Assembly: GCA_023254355.1 (NCBI GenBank)
Contig: JALRLR010000001.1
Location: forward strand, 2,100 to 66,099
Length of the DNA: 64,000 nt
Reading direction: 5' to 3'
Origin: Poseidonia sp.
GTDB taxonomy: Archaea; Thermoplasmatota; Poseidoniia; Poseidoniales; Poseidoniaceae
Made by a program: the position numbers and the translations under genes. Below the pieces are notes generated by a model that was not told the DNA's origin, searched no databases, and worked only from the letters and a program-made list of their open reading frames with translations. Of this stretch, positions 3,001-29,538 are shown piece by piece. Every line of letters starts with the position of its first letter. Position 1 is the first letter of the stretch.

Positions 3001-3451
3001 CGACCAACGTGCTGGAAATCATCACGGGAAACAGGGTACCTTGTCCACACCGCTCGAGGGCGGCCTCGGGTGCGGTGATGCTGCTGCTGAAGTCGCCGAT
3101 GACCGACCCGTAGGCATCGCTTCCGTCCCCGGTTTCAAAGGCCTGCCAGTTGACCACCGGGTGCTCGAGGGTTCCCAGCTCCACGACGTCACTCACGTTG
3201 CCTTGGCCAGGGCCGCCGTCAGGGCTGTGCAAGGGTGCGGTTTGGTTGTGGGTTGGCGTTTGGGCGTACTGCCCCCACGGTTGTTCCAGACCCGTCCAAT
3301 CGGTGTTGCCGCTTGAGGGGGAAATTGGTTGCCGTTGTGCATCAAACACCGTGCCCTGGAAGGGGAGGGCCAGGACGCCGAGCATCAACAGAACGACGGC
3401 CACGGTCAGGCCTTGTCGGCCCTTGGCTGGGTGGGCGCTGCCTGACATCAT
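1..3451 (-). CDS. Giant cell-surface protein, N-terminal part (more than 1150 aa in the window; the 3' end runs off position 1). Signal anchor, FG-GAP/VCBS-type repeats, CARDB-like Ig domains and Asp-rich Ca-binding repeats.
   Basis: I translated the minus strand by hand from ATG ATG at 3451/3448 (MMSGSAHPAKGRQGLTVAVVLLMLGVLALPF...) and found no stop down to position 2 (...FEVVFTWTSQGSEG). The ORF track omits it because it has no in-window stop; no other minus ORF shares its frame. FG-GAP-like units: IHDIDDDGHPEIIVV, LADLELDGTPELVV, LDIDGEGTPEILIGFG, IADVDGDGHLDVLYGD. CARDB-like: GDTVTVTAQFANIGTSEADDDVDASIVMNG. TSP3-like: DTDDDGISDRLCW. Confidence 0.7.
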   Translation of the reverse strand, partial: MMSGSAHPAKGRQGLTVAVVLLMLGVLALPFQGTVFDAQRQPISPSSGNTDWTGLEQPWGQYAQTPTHNQTAPLHSPDGGPGQGNVSDVVELGTLEHPVVNWQAFETGDGSDAYGSVIGDFSSSITAPEAALERCGQGTLFPVMISSTLVDGTRESYLNIISGNDAKIAWRVSLGTTEAIRSTPMIHDIDDDGHPEIIVVYDTQGAFNVDVWSPRLTCTESNWQSSGHSNELVWSYSDADVRIGSPSPHFWTAQSDHQAVTQPLLADLELDGTPELVVAVVDDPENNPSIFVHAYTLTTGQPSAAEWSVNLDRGTHPSDPVWAKLDGTTTSVLLTTIDSNSGNMWIWKIDGDSGSLDWERVAVQGTDSGDSDAPRLRLPGPVITQLDGDAAPEMILTVPTDPNGRSPGTGARYIGMEITSTTEVFNFRAPNGFGDTQPTPLDTDDDGISDRLCWATWYSESSTTPNRKGMVGCTDISDENPVNEWVRDLQRGSGTDNDEIAVSPPFWLDIDGEGTPEILIGFGRRLWAFDGDTGASADINNEWSTPLSMPHRVWTAPAIADVDGDGHLDVLYGDTLVSDRGPDLAPSSDNRGLSFNPAQADPGDTVTVTAQFANIGTSEADDDVDASIVMNGAELTRERFTSSNPVAPSGEGGPMTFTAEFTAQLGVHTFELVLDVNGNISEQREDNNHAMAEFVVVEPYVAELAGPIDPPRILPGTSETIDIELVSTGSRTADWTLSYSTEQVPEDWNFAPLVGQSLSQELVPNTPFTVSFEASVPGTAMGDESGLVSFVLALDDDPTINATLDLPLEVLRTRGLDLTGQTGLNASNGFGRPGSTAEAWFMVENLGNAQETTTTITWTAPSWGGSPSIHAMDGTQLFSITLQPGEAIPLYARLATPASAAYGSSTETTLTMCMGSGSETLCESMPFTFTSQKFVLTPNHQRSLPQANLTWSLTGTLPTSGSVQWNMAEMGMLETDWVWGATGDWTLNGSFLEAQGVGGETVTGDLLLELPPNAVPKRHAFMGSDPADSDAEFNASLHVLQIFRANLTLIDPVPDNEASAISLNVSEQHRFLLYLSNPGNGMDTFTLEATVQSSDSDLHNEVQFTYYDPVKSMGALSTGIGTVDVLLSEDVPAQVPFEVVFTWTSQGSEG

Positions 3452-3704
3452 GAATGACCGCCTTCGGGGGGTTGTTATGGGTTATGGCTCCTTCACAACC
3501 TTAAACCTCGTTTCTCGATGCATCAATTGGGCCCCATCCAGCGGTTGGGGTCGTCATGAGAATGCCCCCGTTGTCCGTTTCAATTAAATAGGGGTCGTCG
3601 GTGGAAGGAATGACTTCGGTCGCTTTCTCTCCTGAGGTAACCCGGTGAAGGACGGAATTGCTTGACAGCATCCGTGTTTCATTGACCTTTGGAAAGAACC
3701 AGAG

Positions 3705-4271
3705 GTGAAACACATGTACAAGGTCGTAACCAAAGAAGACACCATTCGCATTCCTGCTGAATACATGCGGAAAGGCCAATCCTTGGACCAGCACATCGAC
3801 CGTCTCTCCATGGACGCCTTTGAGGGTAAATTTGACTCAGAAAATCGATTCGTTCTGGTGACCAACAATCACAAGACCATCGGCCGTGGTCGAATCATTC
3901 ACGGCGACGGGGCCATTTACCAAAAAGTCCAATTTGACGCCGTGCTCTTCTGCATGGACGACCAAGAAGTCGTTGAAGGGGCCGTTTCGGAAGTCAACGA
4001 ATTCGGAGCCTTTGTCCGTATCGGCCCCATGGAGGCGTTGCTTCACAAGTCCCAAATCATGGAAGAACCCGTTGACATCAACATCGGCGCCAACAAAATC
4101 ATCGGCCGAAACACCGGGCGTGAACTGGCCATCGGTTCGTTCGTTCGTGCCCGCATCGTTTCCCTCTCTCCCGACACTTCCGACCCCCGCCGTTCAAAGA
4201 TCGGTTTGACGAGCAAGCAGGAAGGCCTCGGCTCGCCATCGTGGAACAACGCCAACGATGGAGGTGAGTGA
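3705..4271 (+). CDS. rpoE: DNA-directed RNA polymerase subunit E' (Rpo7, S1 domain)
   Basis: MYKVVTKEDTIRIPAEYM... followed by an S1-like domain; matches archaeal RpoE'. Alternative start MYK at 3714. First gene of a conserved cluster. Confidence 0.85.
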   Translation: MKHMYKVVTKEDTIRIPAEYMRKGQSLDQHIDRLSMDAFEGKFDSENRFVLVTNNHKTIGRGRIIHGDGAIYQKVQFDAVLFCMDDQEVVEGAVSEVNEFGAFVRIGPMEALLHKSQIMEEPVDINIGANKIIGRNTGRELAIGSFVRARIVSLSPDTSDPRRSKIGLTSKQEGLGSPSWNNANDGGE

Positions 4272-4477
4272 GCGTGGTGAACGTTCCCTTCGCCTGCGGT
4301 GAATGCCATTTGGTGTTGAACGATGGCGTTGACCAATGCCCTCGTCACCCCTCCGCACAAGTCTCGTCCGATTGGACCGGCTACGTCATCATCATGCAAC
4401 CCGAACGTTCGGAAATTGCCAAGCGATTGCAGGTGGACCAACCTGGGCGATATGCGCTGAAGGTCAACATTCGATGA
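4268..4477 (+). CDS. spt4: Spt4 / RNA polymerase subunit E'' (zinc ribbon)
   Basis: 69 aa, CGEC...CPRHP Zn ribbon then WTGYVIIMQPERSEIAKRLQVDQPGRYALKV, like archaeal Spt4 (EIAKK...PGKYA). Start overlaps the rpoE stop by 4 nt. Confidence 0.8.
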   Translation: MSVVNVPFACGECHLVLNDGVDQCPRHPSAQVSSDWTGYVIIMQPERSEIAKRLQVDQPGRYALKVNIR

Positions 4478-4486
4478 GGTGAGATC

Positions 4487-4816
4487 ATGGAAATCAAAGA
4501 ACGCAAAGAAAACAAAGTGCTGAATCGAGTTGAAATCTCCTTTAGCTGGAAGCACGACAAAAACGCCACTCCCTCTCGAAAAGAGGTCATGGATTTGGTG
4601 CGAACCCTTGAACCAGGCTCCAATCCTGATTGGATTGTCGTCAAAAATTGTGTCACTCGGTTTGGACAGCCCCTCACCACGGGCTTGGCCTACATCTACG
4701 GCTCCCAAGAGGCCATGGCTGTTGAGCCGGAATACATTCACAAGCGCCATGAACCGTTCCGAAGCGGTTCGGCTGCACCGGCTGATGACGCCGCCACTGA
4801 AGGAGGCGATGAGTGA
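4487..4816 (+). CDS. rps24e: 30S ribosomal protein S24e
   Basis: [38 protein letters not shown]...[23 protein letters not shown] matches the S24e pattern (MEIEI..ENPLL.RREI.F...H...TPSR..V). Confidence 0.85.
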
Positions 4817-4983
4817 TGGGTGACGGTCCGAACGCCAAGGCCAAGTGGTCAAAGTACAAGGTCGAAGACGGCAAACTCATTCGTGCTGAGAACTGCCCCG
4901 TATGCGGTCCCGGCGTGTTTTTGGCTCATCACAACAACCGTAAATCCTGCGGACGTTGCGGTCACACGGCCATGAACGAGTGA
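4816..4983 (+). CDS. rps27ae: 30S ribosomal protein S27ae (zinc ribbon); absent from the ORF track because it is only 55 aa
   Basis: ATG at 4816 shares its A with the S24e TGA (tgATGg). [55 protein letters not shown] = S27ae C4 Zn ribbon. Confidence 0.8.
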
Positions 4984-5940
4984 TCACTCTTCTTCAGTCG
5001 CGCCGCACCGTGACTCAATGGCACTGTTTTGCCATGTGCCGTCGTTCATCAAAAGCAACGCCCCACTTCGGTGAGGGTAAACATGGACGGGAATTTCAGA
5101 CGTCGCTTCTCGTTGGACCGTGTCTTTAGCCAGAACCGCCTCCTCACGCCATCCAGCGATTCTCCAACCCTGCAACTGAGTATCCCACGCAGCATGTTGA
5201 ACGGGGCCGCTCAATTGTGCTTGCGCCACGAGTTTTTGGTCGGTGAGCCAACTCACGGTGCCGTGGGATGAACACACGAGGTCATGAAGGCCCGAGGTGA
5301 AATGCCGCTCAATCGGCCCTTCAATCCCAGGAAGAAGATACTCTTCCAAAAGGACGCCCGTGTCCAGAGCACGACGCTGGACCCGTCCTCCTTTCGACGT
5401 GAGGAGGACATCTTCACCCTTGATGCGAAGGCCCACGGTTTCTTCGTTCCTTGGCCTGCGTTTACTGTATTTCCAGGATGGGGGCGGTTGCCTCCATCGC
5501 TCTTCTGCGTTGGTTTTGGTGCTGTACAATCCTCGCCGATAGAGTTCAAACACGACCACCTCACCGTTTGAGGCGAGGGCCATCGGTTCGGCGTCCAGGC
5601 TGTGCGACCAGACATGACCAGCAGGCTGGTGCGTTGTGCGGGTGCTCATGGAGGCTCGAACTTCGGCTCGGGTCGTTCCGTTTTCGGAGGCGCCAACGGG
5701 CAGGGCCGCCATGCAAGCCAGCAACAATTCACGGTCGAGCCACATTCCAATCAAAAGGTCGTTCTCGACCACGGCTCGATGAATCCGCATGGGATGAGGT
5801 TGACTCGGAGGACCGAGGGGTTGGAGGTTGGCATCCAGCCAAGCAACTTCACCGTCCATTCCGGTAATCACCACTCCTTGAGGGTGATGAACGACCAAAT
5901 CGGGCAGAAAAGGGATGCGTGGAGGCAGCCCTTCGTCCAT
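4984..5940 (-). CDS. Hypothetical protein with PQQ/WD-like beta-propeller repeats
   Basis: Track ORF is 4984..6135; I trimmed it to the internal ATG at 5940 to remove a 170-nt divergent overlap with dtdA. Repeated strand motifs: HHPQGVVITGMDGEVAWLD, SLDAEPMALASNGEVVVFEL, LHDLVCSSHGTVSWL. No long plus-strand alternative ORF exists here. Confidence 0.4.
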   Translation of the reverse strand: MDEGLPPRIPFLPDLVVHHPQGVVITGMDGEVAWLDANLQPLGPPSQPHPMRIHRAVVENDLLIGMWLDRELLLACMAALPVGASENGTTRAEVRASMSTRTTHQPAGHVWSHSLDAEPMALASNGEVVVFELYRRGLYSTKTNAEERWRQPPPSWKYSKRRPRNEETVGLRIKGEDVLLTSKGGRVQRRALDTGVLLEEYLLPGIEGPIERHFTSGLHDLVCSSHGTVSWLTDQKLVAQAQLSGPVQHAAWDTQLQGWRIAGWREEAVLAKDTVQREATSEIPVHVYPHRSGALLLMNDGTWQNSAIESRCGATEEE

Positions 5941-19773: not shown

Positions 19774-20544
19774 TCAGAGTAAACTGCGAAGCGCTTCCTT
19801 GTCAAATTGGGAGACCGCTTGCTGATAGGCGTCGTTGACGCTGAACCATCGGGCTTCGGAGATTTCTTCTGTCTGCAGCGACAATTCAGAAAGGTCGCCG
19901 TTCCAAGTTGACCGATACGTCAAGGAAATGAAAGAGATGCCTTCATCGTTGAACACACGTTGCGTGATGACCGGTTCCTTGTCGTCCAAGACGATCTCTA
20001 ACCCTAACTCCTCAAGCGTTTCTCTCACGCACCCGACCGAAGGGTGTTCGTTGTGGTCCAAGTAGCCTCCTGGCAAGGTCCAAAATCCGTTAAAGTGCCC
20101 TCGCTCGACCTTTCCCATCAGCACTTCGCCTGCATCGTTTTGGATCATGACTTTCGCAACCAATCGATGCAGGGAGCGATAGATGGCTTCTCTTGCGACG
20201 GGGTGAACAGCGTTGTCAGCGATGCACGCGTCCTTCCAAGCCCAATGCTTGGGCCACTCCATTTTTGGATAGGCTTTCAGGACGGTGAATTGGGTTGGCC
20301 CGAAGGTGATGCTGAGCGTGTCCTTTTCAACGAACTCAAGGTCCATGGCCTTGACTTCATCAATCGTGGGGAAACGTAGGGGGCTGCTGTCTCTCATTCG
20401 GCCGGGTTGAGGGAGTTGGGGTCCATTTCCGTGTTCGTCCACCAACAACACCTTTCCGTCGTGTTCCAAATACACGGTGACGAAAGGGTGCATGGTTCCC
20501 GCAACTCCCCGATTCACATCAATGCTCGTATCAGGATTGGTCAC
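19774..20544 (-). CDS. NUDIX hydrolase with an N-terminal extension of about 130 aa of unknown function
   Basis: Nudix box GFWTLPGGYLDHNEHPSVGCVRETLEELGLE (GX5EX7REUXEEXGU). Its start overlaps the rmuC stop by 14 nt. Confidence 0.75.
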   Translation of the reverse strand: MTNPDTSIDVNRGVAGTMHPFVTVYLEHDGKVLLVDEHGNGPQLPQPGRMRDSSPLRFPTIDEVKAMDLEFVEKDTLSITFGPTQFTVLKAYPKMEWPKHWAWKDACIADNAVHPVAREAIYRSLHRLVAKVMIQNDAGEVLMGKVERGHFNGFWTLPGGYLDHNEHPSVGCVRETLEELGLEIVLDDKEPVITQRVFNDEGISFISLTYRSTWNGDLSELSLQTEEISEARWFSVNDAYQQAVSQFDKEALRSLL

Positions 20545-21793
20545 TGGGGAGCATCGTCACCTCAGACGGCTCTGGGAGTTCTTGCGTGAGGGTTTCCGAG
20601 ACTTTCAGTTCGTCCAATCGGCGACCTTGTGGGAGGACTCGTGATTGGTAGGACCGCATGGTGTCGTTATATGCTAGGGTTGCTTTGGCAAGGTGCCCAC
20701 CCACCTTGTTGTAGTGCTCCACCATCGTGGTAACGCGTTTGTACAACTCTCTCGAGACATCGTAAATCTCTCGTGCGCCCTCCGCAAGGGCGTGCTGTTG
20801 CCAGTACAAGGCGACGGTCCGCAACAAGCCGAGCATCGTGACCGGCGTGGTGACCAGGACCGATTTGCTCATGGCATACTCCATCAAATCCGGGTCCACG
20901 TTGAAGGCAGCGGCGGCCATGGCTTCGCTCGGTACGAACATGACCACATGGTCGAAATGACCCTCAATGGCTTCTTGATACGCCTTGGAACTGAGGTCGG
21001 TGATTCGACTTCGCATACTGCGAGCGTGACGAATGAGCAAATCGTCTTGCTGAGGTCCAGCTTCAAGCGAGACCGCTTCGAGATACGTTCCCCCAACCGC
21101 CTTGGAATCGATGGGGATGACGCCTCCCTCCGGGAGGATGACGACAAAGTCTGGACGGGTGCCGTTATCCAAGGTCGGCTGTTCTTTGAAATTCATGTGT
21201 TCGGAAAGGCCTGCCATTTCAAACAGCCGTCGAAGTTTGACTTCGCCCCAATTTCCTCGCGTCTGGCTCGAGGTGGTGAGGGCCGTCGAAAGCGCCACGG
21301 TGCGTGTGGACAAGGATTCCGTTTTCTCACCGAGTTCCTTGATGTTTCGTCGCAATCCTTCGTACGCTCCCACTCGTTCCTTTTCCATCTCGGTGTTTTG
21401 GTGTTGAAGTTTGGTCAATTCCTCCTGAAGCGGCTTGAGCAGATGCTCAACCTCGTTTTTTCGCTGTTCAAGAGCATGCTCAGCCTCAAGTTGATTCTTT
21501 GACCAACGCTCTTCAGCCAATTTTAGAAAATTGGCGGAATTTTCCTCGCTCAGGCGCTTGGAGAGGTTCTCAACCTCTGCTCGGATGCGTTGTTCGTTGA
21601 TGGCTGATGCCTCTTCGCTTGAGCGAAGACGCTCTTCAGCACGAATCAATTCACCGGCGATGGATTGCCGAGCCATCACCCATCCGATTACTCCGCCAAG
21701 GGCCAATCCAATCAACAACAGACCGTACTCTGTCACTCCCACCATGAATCGGTAACGATGGCGACCGTATTTGATGAAATCGGGTTCGGTCAA
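20531..21793 (-). CDS. rmuC: RmuC-family DNA recombination/nuclease-like protein with N-terminal TM helix and long coiled coil
   Basis: TM (GLLLIGLALGGVIGWV), about 150 aa of coiled coil, then the RmuC core GNWGEVKLRRLFEMAGL...DFVVILPEGGVIPIDSKA. An alternative start is M17. Confidence 0.7.
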   Translation of the reverse strand: MTEPDFIKYGRHRYRFMVGVTEYGLLLIGLALGGVIGWVMARQSIAGELIRAEERLRSSEEASAINEQRIRAEVENLSKRLSEENSANFLKLAEERWSKNQLEAEHALEQRKNEVEHLLKPLQEELTKLQHQNTEMEKERVGAYEGLRRNIKELGEKTESLSTRTVALSTALTTSSQTRGNWGEVKLRRLFEMAGLSEHMNFKEQPTLDNGTRPDFVVILPEGGVIPIDSKAVGGTYLEAVSLEAGPQQDDLLIRHARSMRSRITDLSSKAYQEAIEGHFDHVVMFVPSEAMAAAAFNVDPDLMEYAMSKSVLVTTPVTMLGLLRTVALYWQQHALAEGAREIYDVSRELYKRVTTMVEHYNKVGGHLAKATLAYNDTMRSYQSRVLPQGRRLDELKVSETLTQELPEPSEVTMLPSDQS

Positions 21794-23790: not shown

Positions 23791-24774
23791 ATGGCTCGTA
23801 TCGCCGTAACGGACGGGATGGATAAAAAGGCGGTCATGTTGTTGGAAAAGGCCGGCCATGAAGTCGTTCTGGAGCACCTTTCACCAGAGGCATTGGCTTC
23901 CGGAGCCCTCTCAGAGTTCGATGCGATCATCATTCGGAGCGCCACCAAACTCACCGCCTCGGTGATGGCCGCTTCAGGTGACCGTTTGAAAGTCATCGGA
24001 CGGGCGGGCGTGGGCGTGGACAACATCGATTTGGAAGCAGCTGGCCAACACGGTGTTCAGGTGGTGAATGCTCCCCTGGCGAGTACCCAATCGGTCGTCG
24101 AGTTGACCCTCGGCCATCTCCTTGCCTGCATTCGACACCTTCCACGGGCCGATCGTTCCATTCGGTCCGGAAAGTGGGAAAAATCAGCCATGAAAGGTTC
24201 GGAACTTTCGGGGAAAGCCTTGGGCTTGATCGGGTACGGGCGCATCGCTCAATCGGTGGCTCGTGTGGCTCAAGCCTTTGGAATGGAGGTTCATGCTTAC
24301 GACCCTTATCTTCCCCCCAAAATCGCCAAAGCCCAGGGGACCACCCTCCACAAATCGGTGGACAACCTGTTTGCCTCATGCACGCACATCTCGATTCACT
24401 GCAACCTCACCGAAGAAACGCATCATTTGGTCAACGCTGAACGCTTGGCGTCCATGCCCCAAATTGGCGTTGACGGGACCCCTTGCGGCAACCACGTCAT
24501 CAACTGCGCCCGCGGAGGCATCGTTGACGAAACAGCGGTTGTCGAAGCCCTTGAAAACGGTCAACTCACCTCAGCGGCGCTCGATGTTTTTGAGCACGAA
24601 CCGGTTGACCCACAGCACCCTCTGCTCCAAATGGAGCATTTTCATGGAACTCCCCACATCGGGGCCTCCACGTTGGAAGCCCAAGCTCGTGTCGGGGCTG
24701 ACATCGTCACCAACGTGATGCAGGTGCTCGAAGGCCAGCCGTGCGACTTTGTCGTCAACCGTTCTTTCCTGTAG
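23791..24774 (+). CDS. serA: D-3-phosphoglycerate dehydrogenase / D-isomer-specific 2-hydroxyacid dehydrogenase
   Basis: NAD motif LGLIGYGRIAQSVARVAQAFGMEV; catalytic NCARGGIVDE...H. ATG at 23791 (MARIAVTDG); the track start 23722 is TTG. Confidence 0.7.
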   Translation: MARIAVTDGMDKKAVMLLEKAGHEVVLEHLSPEALASGALSEFDAIIIRSATKLTASVMAASGDRLKVIGRAGVGVDNIDLEAAGQHGVQVVNAPLASTQSVVELTLGHLLACIRHLPRADRSIRSGKWEKSAMKGSELSGKALGLIGYGRIAQSVARVAQAFGMEVHAYDPYLPPKIAKAQGTTLHKSVDNLFASCTHISIHCNLTEETHHLVNAERLASMPQIGVDGTPCGNHVINCARGGIVDETAVVEALENGQLTSAALDVFEHEPVDPQHPLLQMEHFHGTPHIGASTLEAQARVGADIVTNVMQVLEGQPCDFVVNRSFL

Positions 24775-24838
24775 CACTTTCACTTTCCAGCACGGGGTCT
24801 TGCCAAAGCACCTCGTCGTCCTTCGCTCTTCGTTGCTT

Positions 24839-25108
24839 ATGGGTCGAAGCGTTCCTCCATGGCGAACACGCGTTGAAGTTGAATTGAACCGTTGGCAGGC
24901 TTACCGTCGTGCCCTCTCCACCACCGATCAGGCCTCGTTTGAACACCTCCTTGACGACATTCGTCAGCGACGTGCAGCCGGCGGTATGCTTCCGTCCCTC
25001 GATGTTTGGCACCCCGCCGTCCTCAGCATGTTGGTGGGATTGATGTCGCGTCTCGGGGAACTGGAGCGGCGGCTTTGTGCACTCGAGGAAGGGCCTTCGG
25101 ATGATTGA
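24839..25108 (+). CDS. Small hypothetical protein (about 90 aa) translationally coupled to the PolB-like gene
   Basis: Its stop (25106..25108) overlaps the PolB-like ATG (25101) by 8 nt. Arg-rich and predicted helical (LGELERRLCALEE). The track start 24749 overlaps the serA 3' end, so the internal Met is preferred. Confidence 0.35.
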   Translation: MGRSVPPWRTRVEVELNRWQAYRRALSTTDQASFEHLLDDIRQRRAAGGMLPSLDVWHPAVLSMLVGLMSRLGELERRLCALEEGPSDD

Positions 25109-27605
25109 GGGTTGGCTTCTCGATGTTCATACCAACGACACCCACACCGGGATGGTGGTTTGGGTCGTTGATGATGCGGGTCGGGCCGCTCGCTGCGATG
25201 TCCCGTGGGCCCCTTCGCTTCATGTCCATGGCTCGTCGGTTGACCTCCAACGATTGGAAGATTGGCTCTTGTTGCCTGAAATTGCGGCACGGTTCGCCGT
25301 GGTTGCCTTGGAACGACGACGTCTGCATTTGGACTTGGACGGTACCGACGTGGCTTCGGTTCTCGAAGTGCGTCTCGAACCCTTTCATCATCTCAAAGCA
25401 CTGGCCGAGCACATTGAAGCCCGAGGAGATTTCCACCGCTACACCTTGTACTCGGTCGACGCCCACCTCGTTCAGCGCTTTCTCAACGACCACGGCTGCT
25501 CGCCTTTCTCAAGGGTCTGCTGGGACCCGACGACCACGCCCATGATTCGTCCCTTGCGTACGATGGACGAAAACATCCTGCCTCCGTTGTGCCTTGTTCG
25601 CCTCGTGGTTGAGTTCGCCCCCTCAGCCTTTCCCTCCGTGACCGATGCGGTGGTGGCCATGCGTCTTGAAACGGTTCAGGAACCTGGAATCCCAGCCACC
25701 CCTCGTAGCGTTCAAAGCACGACCCTGCAACGAGACGATTATCCAACGCTTTCGGCGATGTTGGTCGCCTTTGAAGCGACGCTCAAGCGCTTGGACCCCG
25801 ATCTCCTTCTCACCTACGGTGGCGACAAACGCCTGTTTCCATGGTTGGTTCATCAATCAGAGGCGTTGGGACGTCCACTCGTGCTTGGACGTTCAGTCAC
25901 GCCGCTGTCTCAGTCCACCAAGGCTCAAACGGTTCGTTCCTACGGTCATACGAGGCACAGGGACGGGGCGTTTTTCCTTGAGGGGCGGCTTCATTTGGAC
26001 CTGCGCAACAGTTTCATCGTCAAGGAAGGGGGAGTTGCGGGGTTGTTTGAGTTGGCCCAACAATCGTGCCAATCGGCCCAAGTCATTTCGCGTCTTTCGC
26101 CGGGTTCGGTCATCAGCGCCATTCAGATGCGGGTGGCGATGGACGATGGCGTGTTGGTTCCGTGGAAGAAGAACCGTCCAGAAGACACGAAATCAGCCTT
26201 GGAACTTCTGCATGCCGACCGTGGAGGTTTGTACCTTGACAGCCGGCCCGGTGTTTATGCTTCCGTCATTGAATTGGATTTTGCCAGCCTCTTTCCCAGC
26301 ATCATCGCCACGCGAAACATTTCTCCCGAGACCTTGAACTGTGCTTGCTGTCAACCGTCGGACGGTCCGAACTCGGTTGGAGTTGTGCCGCTTCATCCAG
26401 ATGAAGCCATCGCTGAGTTTCGCCAGCGAGATCATCGGTCACGGTTTGGCCACACGTTGTTCCCCCTCTCCCACGAGAAAGCGCTCAAAGTTCCTGGCCT
26501 CCAAAGCCATACTTGCGGTCGAAGGCACGGTTTTCTCGGCCGTGTGGTTGCCCCCCTCATCGAACGTCGTCGACAGCTCAAAGCGCAGCGCTGCGAAAAG
26601 GGCGATGCGTTTGACTTGCGGCAAAACGCTCTCAAATGGCTCCTCGTGACTTGTTTTGGTTACACGGGTTACCGCAACGCTCGCTTTGGCCGTATCGAGG
26701 CCCACGAAGCGATTTGTGCGTGGTCCAGGGACCTCTTGTTGACCACCATCGAAGAGGCTCAACGCGACGGGTGGGAGGTGCTCCATGCGATCGTCGATTG
26801 TGTTTGGCTCGCCGATCGTTCCAATCGGACGGAAGAACAGCAGCGTGTGGATGCCGAACGCTTCGCACGTCGCATCACGGAACGGGTTGGCATTCCTTTG
26901 GAATTTGAACAGCATTACGAGTTCATTGCGTTTCTTCCGAGTCGGGTTCACGGGGCAGGTTCGCTCACGAAGTATTGGGCGTACGGTGGAGGCGACTACA
27001 AAGTCCGAGGCATTGAACTCCGGCAACATTCCACGCCTCCGTGGATTTGTTCCCTTCAAGAGCGCGCCCTCCAGTTGTTAGCGGCGGGTGAACGGACCAA
27101 CGGTGTGCCGAATCGCAAGGCTCAGCGAGCGGTGTTTTTGCTGTATCAAGCCGAATTGCAGCGATTGAACGACGGCCAACTTCTTCCCAAGGACTTGGTC
27201 ATCTCCCGTCGAATCACCTCTTCTCTCGAGGATTATCGAGTCAAGAACCTCTCGTATGCAGCCTTGCTCCGTGCCCATCATCAAGGTCAACACGTGCCAC
27301 CCGGGGGAAAAATTCGCTACGTGGTGGTGGACGCTTCGGCAACGGAACCGCTTGACAGGGTGGTTCTCGCCGAGGAAACAGCGTTCAAGGAGGCGACGGT
27401 GACGGGCTGTGCTCATCACTACACGCGCCTCGCCGAGCGTGCCATTTGGGCGATCCTTGCCCCTTTTGGGTGGACGGACAAGGACCTTCGTTCCACGAAC
27501 CGACAACCCACGCTTCTGGATTTTGTCACCCCTCGTTCTGAAGGGCATGAGAGCGCGCTGAAGCAGGCACCGAACGCCCCTCGAATTCACGAGGCGCGAG
27601 GGTGA
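25101..27605 (+). CDS. Family B DNA polymerase-like protein with degenerate catalytic motifs (probably inactivated PolB paralog)
   Basis: N-terminus MIEGWLLDVHTNDTHTGMVVWVVDDAGRA matches the archaeal PolB N-domain. Motif A is intact (DFASLFPSIIATRNISPETL). Motif B KxxxNSxYG is replaced by KWLLVTCFGYTGY. Motif C YGDTDS is replaced by HAIVDCVWL. No recognisable Exo I DxE. Confidence 0.75.
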   Translation: MIEGWLLDVHTNDTHTGMVVWVVDDAGRAARCDVPWAPSLHVHGSSVDLQRLEDWLLLPEIAARFAVVALERRRLHLDLDGTDVASVLEVRLEPFHHLKALAEHIEARGDFHRYTLYSVDAHLVQRFLNDHGCSPFSRVCWDPTTTPMIRPLRTMDENILPPLCLVRLVVEFAPSAFPSVTDAVVAMRLETVQEPGIPATPRSVQSTTLQRDDYPTLSAMLVAFEATLKRLDPDLLLTYGGDKRLFPWLVHQSEALGRPLVLGRSVTPLSQSTKAQTVRSYGHTRHRDGAFFLEGRLHLDLRNSFIVKEGGVAGLFELAQQSCQSAQVISRLSPGSVISAIQMRVAMDDGVLVPWKKNRPEDTKSALELLHADRGGLYLDSRPGVYASVIELDFASLFPSIIATRNISPETLNCACCQPSDGPNSVGVVPLHPDEAIAEFRQRDHRSRFGHTLFPLSHEKALKVPGLQSHTCGRRHGFLGRVVAPLIERRRQLKAQRCEKGDAFDLRQNALKWLLVTCFGYTGYRNARFGRIEAHEAICAWSRDLLLTTIEEAQRDGWEVLHAIVDCVWLADRSNRTEEQQRVDAERFARRITERVGIPLEFEQHYEFIAFLPSRVHGAGSLTKYWAYGGGDYKVRGIELRQHSTPPWICSLQERALQLLAAGERTNGVPNRKAQRAVFLLYQAELQRLNDGQLLPKDLVISRRITSSLEDYRVKNLSYAALLRAHHQGQHVPPGGKIRYVVVDASATEPLDRVVLAEETAFKEATVTGCAHHYTRLAERAIWAILAPFGWTDKDLRSTNRQPTLLDFVTPRSEGHESALKQAPNAPRIHEARG

Positions 27606-28308
27606 ACCGCGTCTGCCTTGGGTCGTGGTTAGCATTCCAGAGCCCGCGCAACCCGGAACGTGGATGATTGAGGTAGAGGGTCCGTTTTCGTCGCGTCCCT
27701 CGCCAGTGACCCACGAGGTGGTGATGGGCATGTCGGTGAACCTGCTGGAGGAGGCGGCGCTGATGGACGGTCCGTCCGTGGGCTTCCGTGATCACGACGA
27801 CAGCGGCTCGATGATGTTGGGCGAGCCGGGACAGCAGGGCGATGTGGCGCCTGAGCAAGGTCCTCGATTCAAGGCGCTTGATGGCCTCGTCTTCATGCAT
27901 GGCCAGCAAACCGTCAACCACGAGCAACGGCGAACGGGTGATCTCCAATTCGTGGGGTAAACGTTCCAGTTGCCGGTCCAGTTGGTGCAAGGTGAATCCA
28001 CGACTCAAGTACAAACGAGAAAGACAGGCCTCCGTATCGGCTCCCAACGATGCGAGGGTTGGGAGGAGTCGAGCGGGGTCAATTCTGCAGGCTCCGTCCA
28101 CCCAATGAACGGTTTCACCGTGGACCAACGCTTCGGCCACCCAGTGTTCTGCGACGGGTCGCATGCTTTTCCCAGCACGACCCGGCCCGGTGAGGTGGTA
28201 AAGAAGGCCCGGCTCAGGTCGCAGCAAATCCAGGTCAAACCCCTCGTGCTGCTGCCGAAGAAGCGGGGCCAAAGGTTGTGGTTGATTTTGGGAGTCCATG
28301 TCAATCAT
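27526..28308 (-). CDS. RecA-superfamily ATPase (RadB/KaiC/ImuA-like)
   Basis: Walker A LTGPGRAGKS; Walker B LLVVDGLLAM. About 260 aa. The C-terminal 80 nt overlap the 3' end of the PolB-like gene convergently. Divergent from dinB with a 51-bp spacer. Confidence 0.55.
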   Translation of the reverse strand: MIDMDSQNQPQPLAPLLRQQHEGFDLDLLRPEPGLLYHLTGPGRAGKSMRPVAEHWVAEALVHGETVHWVDGACRIDPARLLPTLASLGADTEACLSRLYLSRGFTLHQLDRQLERLPHELEITRSPLLVVDGLLAMHEDEAIKRLESRTLLRRHIALLSRLAQHHRAAVVVITEAHGRTVHQRRLLQQVHRHAHHHLVGHWRGTRRKRTLYLNHPRSGLRGLWNANHDPRQTRFTLAPREFEGRSVPASARSHALQNEG

Positions 28309-28359
28309 TGAAGGTCCCCCTCGTCAGCCATCAATCCTTTTCAACACCCCTCGCTTGAA

Positions 28360-29538
28360 GTGAAAGCCATCAAGTTCAAACACCGCTGCCCCCGAAATTT
28401 GGGTGTGGATGATTCCGTCGCCGATGAGTTGGATGCGCCTCAACGCATCCTGGTCCACTGCGATTTGGACGCGTTTTTCGCTGCCGTTGAAACCTTGCAC
28501 CACGGGCTGGACGAAAGCGTACCGCTGATCATCGGCTCCGAACCAAAGCAGGGTCGTGGGCGAGGCATCGTTTCCACATGCAATTACGCCGCTCGCCAAT
28601 ACGGCGTCCGTTCGGCGATGCCGATTTCCGAAGCGTGGCGTCGTTGTCCGGGGGCCCCGTTTGGTCATGCCCGCTACATCCGAGGGACGCGTGGTTTGTA
28701 CACACGGGCCAGTCGGCGAGTGATGGCGATCTTGAAAGCCCATGCAACGGCCTTTGAACAGGCCAGCATCGATGAGGCCTACCTCGACGTGACCGAGGCG
28801 GTCAACGGTGATTGGGACCTGGCGTTGGCGCTGACGAAAAGCTTGCAGCGTGACATCGTTGAGGCGTTGGGCCTGACCGCCTCGTTTGGAGTGGGGCCCA
28901 CTCGAATCATTGCCAAAATGAGCAGCGAGGTGAACAAACCAAACGGCGTTCATCGCGTCCTGCCCGATGAGGTTGAGGCGTTCTTCGAAGGTCGTCCTCT
29001 ACGTGAGATTCCAGGCATCGGCCCCAAGCGGGCCACCCAACTCGCCGAATGGGGCTACTCAACCGCTGATGAGTTGCGGGCCTTGGGGGAACTGTCCCTC
29101 GCACGCTTGGCCGGTGAGCGGTTTGCCACCTGGTTCATGGAAGTGGTGGAAGGCGAAAGCAGTCGGGTCGTCAGTCCGTTGAGGAGTCGAAAGTCCATTG
29201 GCAAGGAGCATACCTTTGAGCGGGATTTGGACGACCATGAATCCGTGCTCGCTCGATTGGAGGAACTGGTTGATTTGGTCATGAACCGAGCATCTGAATT
29301 GGGCGTTTCAGGGCGACTGGCGGAGGTGAAGATTCGGTACACGGGATTCGAGACCCATGCTTCAGGCCGGAGCATACCGGTGGCCATGGACGACCCCGCC
29401 GTGTTCAAGCGACTGGCCAGAACGCTGTTTGCCAACAACATCGAAACGGAAAAATCCGTCCGCTTAATCGGGTTTCGTTTAGGTCATCTTGAAGAACCGT
29501 CTTCACGGCAAACCACCCTCTTCGACGAAGAGGAATGA
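28360..29538 (+). CDS. dinB: Y-family DNA polymerase IV (DinB/Dpo4-like)
   Basis: ILVHCDLDAFFAAVE (catalytic D.D), SIDEAYLDVT (DE), little-finger region. GTG start at 28360. Confidence 0.85.
   Translation: MKAIKFKHRCPRNLGVDDSVADELDAPQRILVHCDLDAFFAAVETLHHGLDESVPLIIGSEPKQGRGRGIVSTCNYAARQYGVRSAMPISEAWRRCPGAPFGHARYIRGTRGLYTRASRRVMAILKAHATAFEQASIDEAYLDVTEAVNGDWDLALALTKSLQRDIVEALGLTASFGVGPTRIIAKMSSEVNKPNGVHRVLPDEVEAFFEGRPLREIPGIGPKRATQLAEWGYSTADELRALGELSLARLAGERFATWFMEVVEGESSRVVSPLRSRKSIGKEHTFERDLDDHESVLARLEELVDLVMNRASELGVSGRLAEVKIRYTGFETHASGRSIPVAMDDPAVFKRLARTLFANNIETEKSVRLIGFRLGHLEEPSSRQTTLFDEEE

Follow-up and report, generated by a model that had tools for sequence, protein, structure and literature searches.

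The PolB2 operon and its locus in Poseidonia

The first account of the PolB2 operon was given by Makarova, Krupovic and Koonin in 2014 (PMC4104785), and in 2025 Timinskas, Timinskas and Venclovas described PolB2 together with its operon partners, PPB2 (formerly arCOG07300) and iRadA (PMC11791011). In that work, PPB2 was characterised as small and helical, its N-terminus forming a conserved 'MGRT' arm with Arg at positions 3 and 9, and iRadA as a RadA homologue devoid of the N-terminal domain and of the ATPase residues, while a PolB2-iRadA-3xPPB2 heteropentamer was modelled and likened to the Pol V mutasome. As for the activity of PolB2, Dpo2 of Sulfolobus islandicus presented robust nucleotide incorporation, no exonuclease and an efficient extension of mismatched or lesion-paired termini (PMC8764526), was the only damage-induced polymerase of S. 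islandicus and solely responsible for its targeted mutagenesis (PMC7390963), and cooperated with Dpo4 at abasic sites, Dpo4 acting first as the inserter and Dpo2 then as the extender (PMC8721586). Here, positions 24839 to 29538 of a 64,000-nucleotide (nt) stretch of Poseidonia sp. DNA (contig JALRLR010000001.1), which as a whole is called the window, were analysed. This locus is very probably a three-gene PolB2 translesion-synthesis (TLS) module of Poseidonia (Marine Group II), with a DinB polymerase gene as its neighbour by synteny.

The PPB2-PolB2-iRadA module has already been published, even for this archaeal order, and no new system is involved. In particular, Poseidoniales appear in the published operon group '3b (PPB2-PolB2-iRadA)', including EHR76801 and a Poseidonia sp. 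(supplement of PMC11791011), the Poseidoniales proteins EHR76801 and MBL6742771 belong to the published PolB2 set, and a pentamer model of MBN29951/50/52, where MBN29951 is the PolB2, reached an AlphaFold ranking of 0.81 (PMC11791011). Among the loci compared below, EHR76801 presumably corresponds to L043, the sole CM001443 locus fetched. An earlier note on this DNA had proposed a mutasome-like damage-tolerance or mutagenesis module made of a PolB, a small coupled protein and a RecA fold, an analogy that is indeed published (PMC11791011). It had also taken the module to be functionally undescribed, which is no longer tenable for an operon known since 2014 (PMC4104785), whose Poseidoniales orthologues were catalogued and modelled in 2025 (PMC11791011). 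What is new here comprises a TTCACTTT element, a DinB start at 28405, a conserved PIP-like (PCNA-interacting protein) box in PolB2 and a photolyase neighbour in another clade.

The table of open reading frames (ORFs) confirmed the four ORFs of 24839-29538 at the coordinates first given for them, as follows (aa, amino acids):

24839..25108, plus strand: PPB2, 89 aa from the ATG at 24839, N-terminus MGRSVPPWR
25101..27605, plus strand: PolB2, 834 aa, PolB2-group family-B DNA polymerase
27526..28308, minus strand: iRadA, 260 aa, RadA/Rad51 ATPase-core homologue
28405..29538, plus strand: DinB, Y-family Pol IV, 377 aa from the GTG at 28405 (longest ORF 28360..29538, 392 aa)

The longest ORF in the PPB2 frame begins upstream, at the TTG at 24749, and an alternative GTG at 25077 would extend PolB2 to 842 aa. 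The end of PPB2 and the start of PolB2 overlap by 8 nt (25101-25108), PolB2 and iRadA overlap convergently at their 3′ ends by 80 nt (27526-27605), and a 51-nt spacer separates the iRadA start from the longest DinB ORF. Both overlaps and this spacer agree with the earlier description, in which the small ORF was rightly coupled to the start of the polymerase but was given 90 aa instead of the 89 aa counted from the ATG at 24839. The locus is organised in two units, of which one consists of PPB2 and PolB2 with coupled translation and the other, convergent, of iRadA. The genes are real and not chance ORFs, because PolB2, iRadA and DinB have domain matches and PPB2, PolB2 and iRadA are conserved in ~80 Poseidoniales loci.

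To compare the locus, nine window proteins were mapped onto each of 80 genome loci and 5 metagenome loci, the closest genome match being Poseidonia sp. BS301-5m-G57 (L006), with 95% identity across the whole PolB. The order PPB2(+) PolB2(+) iRadA(-) was present in every locus with enough flanking sequence (~83), and the trio kept its convergent layout after relocation to unrelated contexts. Across loci, the 3′ overlap of PolB2 and iRadA ranged from ~4 to 83 nt, with 62 nt as the commonest length, and small gaps appeared in some clades. Within the overlap, the PolB2 tail was the less conserved frame (30% vs. 45% mean pairwise identity), while the 21 PolB2 residues just before it were 71% conserved. 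Moreover, two loci (L032, 10498-12443, and L082 at the same position) carried two membrane-enzyme genes between PolB2 and iRadA, one ceramidase-like (PF05875) and the other a CDP-alcohol phosphatidyltransferase (PF01066); the overlap is therefore dispensable.

PolB2, PPB2 and iRadA

PolB2 matched the Pfam family PF00136 (E-value 1.4e-19, 70.7 bits vs. a cutoff of 23) and Thermococcales PolB in the PDB (E 1.6e-34), its best NCBIfam models being the PolB2-type NF004418 and NF004416, both named 'type B DNA-directed DNA polymerase'. A total of 579 homologues were found, and all the source-named ones came from Poseidoniales. Against S. islandicus Dpo2, whose sequence was taken from the supplement of PMC11791011, the identity was 31% (E 1e-30), with all signature motifs aligned. 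Conservation was read from an alignment of 23 Poseidoniales PolB2 sequences, and the motifs were located as follows:

26217..26222, plus strand: D(K/R) motif D373-R374, HADRGGLYLD vs. MADKGGLILF in Dpo2 (D253-K254)
26277..26306, plus strand: motif A DFASLFPSII (residues 393-402), LDFASLFPSII vs. VDFSSMYPSLI in Dpo2, catalytic Asp393 kept
26634..26660, plus strand: motif B KWLLVTCFG (residues 512-520), KWLLVTCFGYTGYRN vs. KWILVASFGYLGYRN in Dpo2, Lys512 kept
26784..26804, plus strand: motif C HAIVDCV (residues 562-568), LHAIVDCV vs. LHSIIDSL in Dpo2
27504..27527, plus strand: PIP-like box QPTLLDFV (residues 802-809), C-terminal, ending exactly at the start of the iRadA overlap

The D(K/R) motif, defined as PolB2-specific (PMC11791011), lies 20 residues ahead of motif A, and both of its residues were invariant. 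In motif B, the N-to-V and Y-to-F changes were the same as in KWILVASFG of Dpo2, while in motif C the IVD triplet (564-566) aligned with the reported IID of Dpo2 (PMC11791011) and with DTD of Thermococcus, the first Asp being replaced by Ile and D566 being kept. Furthermore, D393, K512, V565 and D566 were invariant and I564 nearly so. Regarding the exonuclease, the Exo II segment YNGDNFDF of Thermococcus reads YGGDKRLF in the window, with the catalytic Asp changed to Leu, no invariant acidic residue was found in the Exo I region (positions 141-221) among the 23 sequences, and the segment matching Exo III of Thermococcus PolB was ~45 residues shorter, judging from the alignment coordinates. The 3′-5′ exonuclease active site of PolB2 is accordingly lost. 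By homology with Dpo2, the Poseidonia PolB2 would most likely be an active extender polymerase without exonuclease.

In the PIP-like box, which belongs to the 71% conserved stretch of 21 residues ahead of the overlap, L805 was invariant and F808 nearly invariant, and variants of the box were found across all clades (QPxLLxF, TTLLDF, QRRLSEF and RLDQWM), which suggests that PolB2, rather than iRadA, may be the PCNA-binding subunit in this lineage. As a separate observation on motif A, the steric gate Tyr of family B (SLYPS) is replaced in Poseidoniales by an invariant Phe (SLFPS; F398, 26292-26294), while the Sulfolobus Dpo2 keeps Tyr.

The small ORF is PPB2 (arCOG07300 / DUF8156), a helical PolB2 partner with an N-terminal MGRS arm (R3, R9). 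In the alignment of its homologues, M1-V5 were nearly invariant, and W8 and R9 were invariant. The precomputed label PF26485 (DUF8156) was attached to a 99%-identical protein (P0186) and to 48 of the 48 PPB2 homologues, and the AlphaFold2 model was helical (H7-17, H20-25, H28-46 and H58-83), with a predicted local distance difference test (pLDDT) value of 77. Moreover, a profile search of 1.84 billion representatives yielded 624 related cluster representatives, and among the best 146 of these 624, a total of 89 began with MGR (80 with MGRT), with R at position 9 in 59 of the 89. A further operon of this kind was noted on a Halorussus vallis plasmid (NZ_CP100004.1), where an iRadA-like gene, an MGRT protein and a 'type B DNA-directed DNA polymerase' stand in the classical order.

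As for the RecA-like protein, it matched PF08423 Rad51 (E 1.1e-5, weak but over the gathering score) and showed weak RadB/RadA matches in NCBIfam. Its AlphaFold2 model (pLDDT 81.8) had the RAD51, RadA and DMC1 cores as top PDB matches in Foldseek (E ~7e-12, template modelling score ≤0.74), and 57% identity (E 2e-87) was found to MBN29950, a published iRadA of group 3b; its affinity, for which the earlier note had listed several candidates, is to the RAD51/RadA core fold. No N-terminal RadA domain was present, the match beginning at query residues 33-64 against core residue 166 of 1pzn, and residues 1-14 of the model had pLDDT values <50. The intact Walker motifs that had been claimed for this protein are there in the window (Walker A GPGRAGKS with a canonical K47, Walker B LLVVD), but in orthologues the Walker A Lys varies (K/R/S/A/T/G/D/Q) and the position of the RadA catalytic Glu (IDTE) is an invariant Ala73 (W[VI]DGACR). 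ATP hydrolysis by iRadA appears, from these residues, very unlikely, and the protein fits what would be expected of an inactivated RadA. Independently of this, the C-terminal tail of iRadA inside the overlap (27529-27585, minus strand) shows a semi-conserved [VI]G[VAI]LxL[HQ]H in the closest clades and, in more distant clades, LTLxxF-type ends that are PIP-like in appearance.

Compared with Dpo2, PPB2 and iRadA of S. islandicus, the Poseidonia trio shares the IxD motif C, the D(K/R) motif, the lost exonuclease site, the MGR[TS] arm on a helical protein of ~90 aa, the RadA core devoid of an N-terminal domain and the gene order PPB2-PolB2-iRadA. However, the Poseidonia iRadA lies on the opposite strand, convergent with PolB2 and with overlapping 3′ ends, and its window copy keeps the Walker A Lys. 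Moreover, the Poseidonia PolB2 is much longer (834 aa vs. ~555), 53 residues being inserted between its motifs A and B, and has the conserved PIP-like box, and no orc1/cdc6 gene adjoins the module in the window. As argued in PMC11791011, the module is analogous in architecture to the Escherichia coli Pol V mutasome (UmuD′2C-RecA-ATP), in which a TLS polymerase is likewise combined with an oligomeric accessory protein of small size, a single subunit of RecA fold and binding to the clamp. In contrast to Pol V, the Poseidonia polymerase belongs to family B and not Y, PPB2 is unrelated to UmuD′, and the RecA-fold subunit, rather than being the recombinase of the cell itself, is a paralogue dedicated to this role and probably inactivated.

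Taken as a TLS module, the locus would work through PolB2 as an active, exonuclease-free polymerase, as its homology to the Sulfolobus Dpo2 suggests. PolB2 would be complexed with one non-hydrolysing iRadA through a Rad51-like oligomerisation motif in PolB2, following the published AlphaFold models of orthologues, and a PPB2 trimer would join the complex, its MGRS N-terminal arm inserting between PolB2 and iRadA. The PIP-like box of PolB2 would recruit the complex to PCNA, and the complex would then extend primer termini opposite or just past lesions.

Several points weigh against this explanation. The NCBIfam scores of PolB2 were under the curated cutoffs (388 vs. 692 for NF004418 and 355 vs. 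516 for NF004416). In addition, the hhalign comparison between PPB2 and S. islandicus PPB2 was marginal (E 3.5e-4, probability 37%), with the N-termini aligned, and the iRadA profile gave no significant hhalign match to the very divergent S. islandicus iRadA (E 0.87). These two comparisons being weak, the link to the S. islandicus system rests on the PolB2 similarity, the motifs, the gene order and the published family assignment. Furthermore, the canonical Walker A of the window iRadA may leave room for nucleotide binding in this species, and the activity, the complex formation and the PCNA binding of the Poseidoniales proteins are all attributed by homology.

A shared upstream element and the putative promoters

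A conserved TTCACTTT element was found ~60 nt upstream of both the PPB2 and the iRadA starts across the order, and both promoters presented a GGGT and A-rich block 6-8 nt past the element. In the window, these features were the following (BRE, TFB recognition element):

24775..24787, plus strand: CACTTTCACTTTC, candidate regulatory site, directly after the stop codon of 2-Hacid_dh and ~60 nt before the PPB2 ATG
24794..24812, plus strand: GGGGTC + TTGCCAAAGCACC, putative BRE/TATA-like core promoter of the PPB2-PolB2 unit
28332..28350, minus strand: GGGGTG + TTGAAAAGGATTG, putative iRadA core promoter, laid out as in the PPB2 promoter
28356..28364, minus strand: TTCACTTCA, the same element in iRadA orientation, flanked by the promoters of iRadA and DinB and ~56 nt upstream of the iRadA ATG
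28367..28384, plus strand: CCATCAAGTTCAAACACC, block conserved in all DinB-bearing clades, putative TATA/BRE from which DinB would be transcribed without a leader

The core TT[CT]A[CGT]TT[TC] started at -75..-52 relative to the start codon in 76 of the 81 PPB2 upstream regions, covering all clades, and in 66 of the 80 iRadA regions, compared to a background rate of 0.00033 per nt (0.8% per such interval), although these counts were made on the very loci from which the element had been defined, a point against reading too much into them. Its median distance to the start codon was 60 nt for PPB2 and 59 nt for iRadA. Moreover, the element was retained in relocated loci with otherwise unrelated flanks, and in DinB-bearing lineages it sits within the divergent iRadA/DinB control region. 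The PPB2 promoter block was semi-conserved as GGGTC..AAAGCA in the upstream alignments, and CACTTTCACTTTC was the sole exact copy of this 13-mer in the window.

A position weight matrix (PWM) scan of ~1.3 Mb of Poseidoniales loci and of the window found no recurrent third target, the 80 extra hits being scattered and at about the level of chance. The other hits in the window (10173, 18738 and 42060) were all inside coding regions, and in one clade a recurrent hit, at ~350 nt ahead of PPB2, was discarded, as it falls inside a photolyase ORF. Upstream of the operon of the Halorussus vallis plasmid (L086) the element was not found, and tandem TCTGGAA repeats appeared there instead. In that plasmid, TCTGGAA(A/G)C is repeated in tandem in two pairs at 2850-2945, upstream of the iRadA-PPB2-PolB2 operon, and might act as a different control element peculiar to that lineage; just downstream of PolB2 there is a TIR-domain gene.

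The window copy upstream of PPB2, ACTTTCACTTTC, can be read as the hexamer ANTTTC twice in tandem. This hexamer is the damage-response element bound by Orc1-2 in Sulfolobus promoters, and the induction of dpo2 depends on Orc1-2 (PMC6061795). Both the Poseidoniales element and the Orc1-2/ANTTTC system of Sulfolobales (Sun et al. 2018) place a short T-rich element upstream of the start of the PolB2 operon. However, the Poseidoniales core is TTCA[CG]TT[TC], many iRadA copies do not fit ANTTTC, and the element stands at about -60 and not at -23 to -55 as in Sulfolobales. The resemblance is consequently treated as a lead only.

Regarding its role, one regulator would most likely bind the TTCACTTT element at both promoters and co-induce the two units, presumably in response to damage. 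A more specific proposal, namely that the element is the operator of a UV/DNA-damage regulator in Marine Group II that coordinates a DinB inserter and PolB2 extender pair, is put forward tentatively and is on the doubtful side. If true, damage-response cis-elements would have their first candidate outside Sulfolobales, in abundant, uncultured archaea of the sunlit ocean, and the element could define a damage regulon in these Marine Group II archaea.

DinB and the competing readings of the locus

DinB scored 276.6 bits with the NCBIfam Pol IV model NF002677 (cutoff of 256), contained the domains IMS, IMS_HHH and IMS_C (PF00817, PF11798 and PF11799) and matched Pol IV in the PDB (E 3e-47), with the catalytic DxD and IDE residues aligned (hcDlDaff and sIDEayldv vs. 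7yll). It is, as far as its sequence tells and as had been claimed, an ordinary and catalytically intact Pol IV. Its likely start is the GTG at 28405 and not the GTG at 28360, because an in-frame GTG or ATG occurs exactly 21 nt past AARCACY in nearly all DinB loci, though the N-terminal length varies by clade, and because the PDB Pol IV alignments start at residue 29 of the longest DinB ORF. The resulting 377 aa are also the length of the L001 DinB gene call. This start suggests a leaderless DinB mRNA and an iRadA-DinB intergenic region of ~96 nt, so that the divergent 51-bp spacer of the earlier description holds for the longest DinB ORF but probably not for the gene.

DinB was present in 54 of the 73 evaluable loci, always with a valyl-tRNA synthetase (ValRS) gene downstream and 2-Hacid_dh upstream (all three in 51 loci). 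In the remaining 19 evaluable loci, ValRS and 2-Hacid_dh were absent as well, and the trio stood in unrelated contexts. In the published data, IMS was found in 46 of 95 group 3b operons vs. 10 of 1728 elsewhere, and group 3b operons showed IMS beside 2-Hacid_dh_C (45), tRNA-synt_1 (42) and Lactamase_B (32) (Supplementary Table S1 of PMC11791011), a neighbour that the main text of that paper never discusses. DinB is thus kept or lost along with ValRS and 2-Hacid_dh, as a neighbour by synteny that is specific to the lineage. To judge from gene content, the three genes PPB2-PolB2-iRadA make up the unit that functions and moves, with DinB outside it; the four-gene module proposed earlier is not borne out, as the trio is co-conserved and DinB does not travel with it.

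The alternative that survives best takes DinB as a functional fourth member, co-regulated with iRadA from a bidirectional region and serving as the dedicated inserter for the PolB2 extender. The divergent iRadA/DinB pair is kept over the deepest sampled splits (down to 47% identity in PolB2), and the two promoters have the TTCACTTT element between them, 3-27 nt away from the block of the DinB promoter. Moreover, Dpo4 has been shown biochemically to work with Dpo2, and the module is repeatedly found beside damage-repair genes, including a photolyase 79-92 nt upstream of PPB2 elsewhere. However, the frequency of retention is exactly the same for DinB as for the unrelated ValRS and 2-Hacid_dh, and modules that have relocated do not bring DinB along. 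In addition, the spacing between the element and the iRadA promoter is fixed, while that between the element and the DinB block varies between clades, and the Sulfolobus dpo4 is not damage-induced (PMC6061795). Full membership of DinB is accordingly held to be unlikely. A looser inserter and extender link between DinB and PolB2 is plausible by analogy, in that DinB may be the 'inserter' at lesions in the way that Dpo4 is for Dpo2, and its regulation may be shared by way of the intergenic region. In this respect the locus recalls two-polymerase TLS (eukaryotic Pol zeta with Rev1 or Pol eta; Sulfolobus Dpo4 with Dpo2), with an intact Pol IV beside an exonuclease-free, extender-type PolB, although the adjacency in Poseidoniales tracks the synteny of the locus.

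Far less probable is the proposal of the earlier note that a dead PolB2 scaffold presents the active DinB, with the RecA-like ATPase as a loader, in a four-gene counterpart of ImuA-ImuB-DnaE2 with swapped roles. The motifs DFASLFPSII, KWLLVTCFG and HAIVDCV that it quoted are present, no exonuclease site was found, and the loss of the first Asp of motif C and of the exonuclease residues would suit an inactive protein. The inactive scaffold fails, though, because the same substitutions occur in Dpo2, which is robustly active and drives targeted mutagenesis: the supposedly degenerate motifs are the PolB2 family signature, aligned residue for residue with this active polymerase, and on proper alignment the acidic D393 and D566, together with K512, are invariant, following the pattern of active Dpo2. 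Similarly, the canonical Walker A of the window protein would fit an ATPase loader, but the P-loop Lys is not conserved among orthologues and the catalytic Glu is absent in all of them. As for DinB, it is intact and adjoins the trio in 54 of the 73 evaluable loci, against 19 evaluable loci and nearly all other lineages where the trio occurs without it. ImuA-ImuB-DnaE2 (ImuC) likewise has a RecA-like protein beside specialised polymerases and is tied to damage-induced mutagenesis. However, domain searches found no C-family polymerase in the Poseidonia cluster, there is no inactive Y-family subunit, DinB being a full Pol IV with complete catalytic residues, and the RecA fold is the sole feature in common.

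It is equally improbable that the module serves replication initiation or regulation, or the processing of stalled forks, and not TLS, as raised by Makarova et al. in 2014 from the operon adjoining orc1/cdc6 in many euryarchaea (PMC4104785), given that orc1/cdc6 was a neighbour in 0 of the 145 operons of groups 3a and 3b, that Sulfolobus genetics and biochemistry favour translesion synthesis, and that Orc1-2 is now known as a damage-response regulator (PMC6061795).

Other observations concern the surroundings of the three-gene module. In a clade without DinB, a 665-aa DNA photolyase homologue (PF00875) was found on the same strand as PPB2 and 79-92 nt upstream of it (loci L045, L053 at 3308-5305, L055, L056, L059, L062, L064 and L066), and also in L054 and, at a distance of 1049 nt, in L060. 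This is the second time that the module was seen next to a gene for UV-damage repair. In the window, the conserved syntenic block upstream (19774-21793) contains RmuC (PF02646) and a NUDIX protein that is extended at length at its N-terminus; the two are related to DNA metabolism and retained only in closer clades. An origin of the locus from a mobile element or other foreign DNA was considered and rejected, as the GC content was 0.58 at 24-30 kb vs. 0.54 in the immediate flanks, and some other parts of the window came to 0.57-0.58, so that the locus is no outlier.

Furthermore, errors were noticed in public gene calls. In L001 (5740-5910), PPB2 was missed and a 56-aa antisense ORF was called instead, while in L002 (8406-10454) iRadA was missed and the DinB call was stretched to 612 aa over the antisense strand of iRadA. 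Moreover, the public PPB2 record MBN29952, on which the published modelling drew, begins at an internal Met (MRVEAEL...), without the conserved MGRSVPxWR arm. Together with the corrected DinB start, these gene-calling errors affect the modelling of these proteins.

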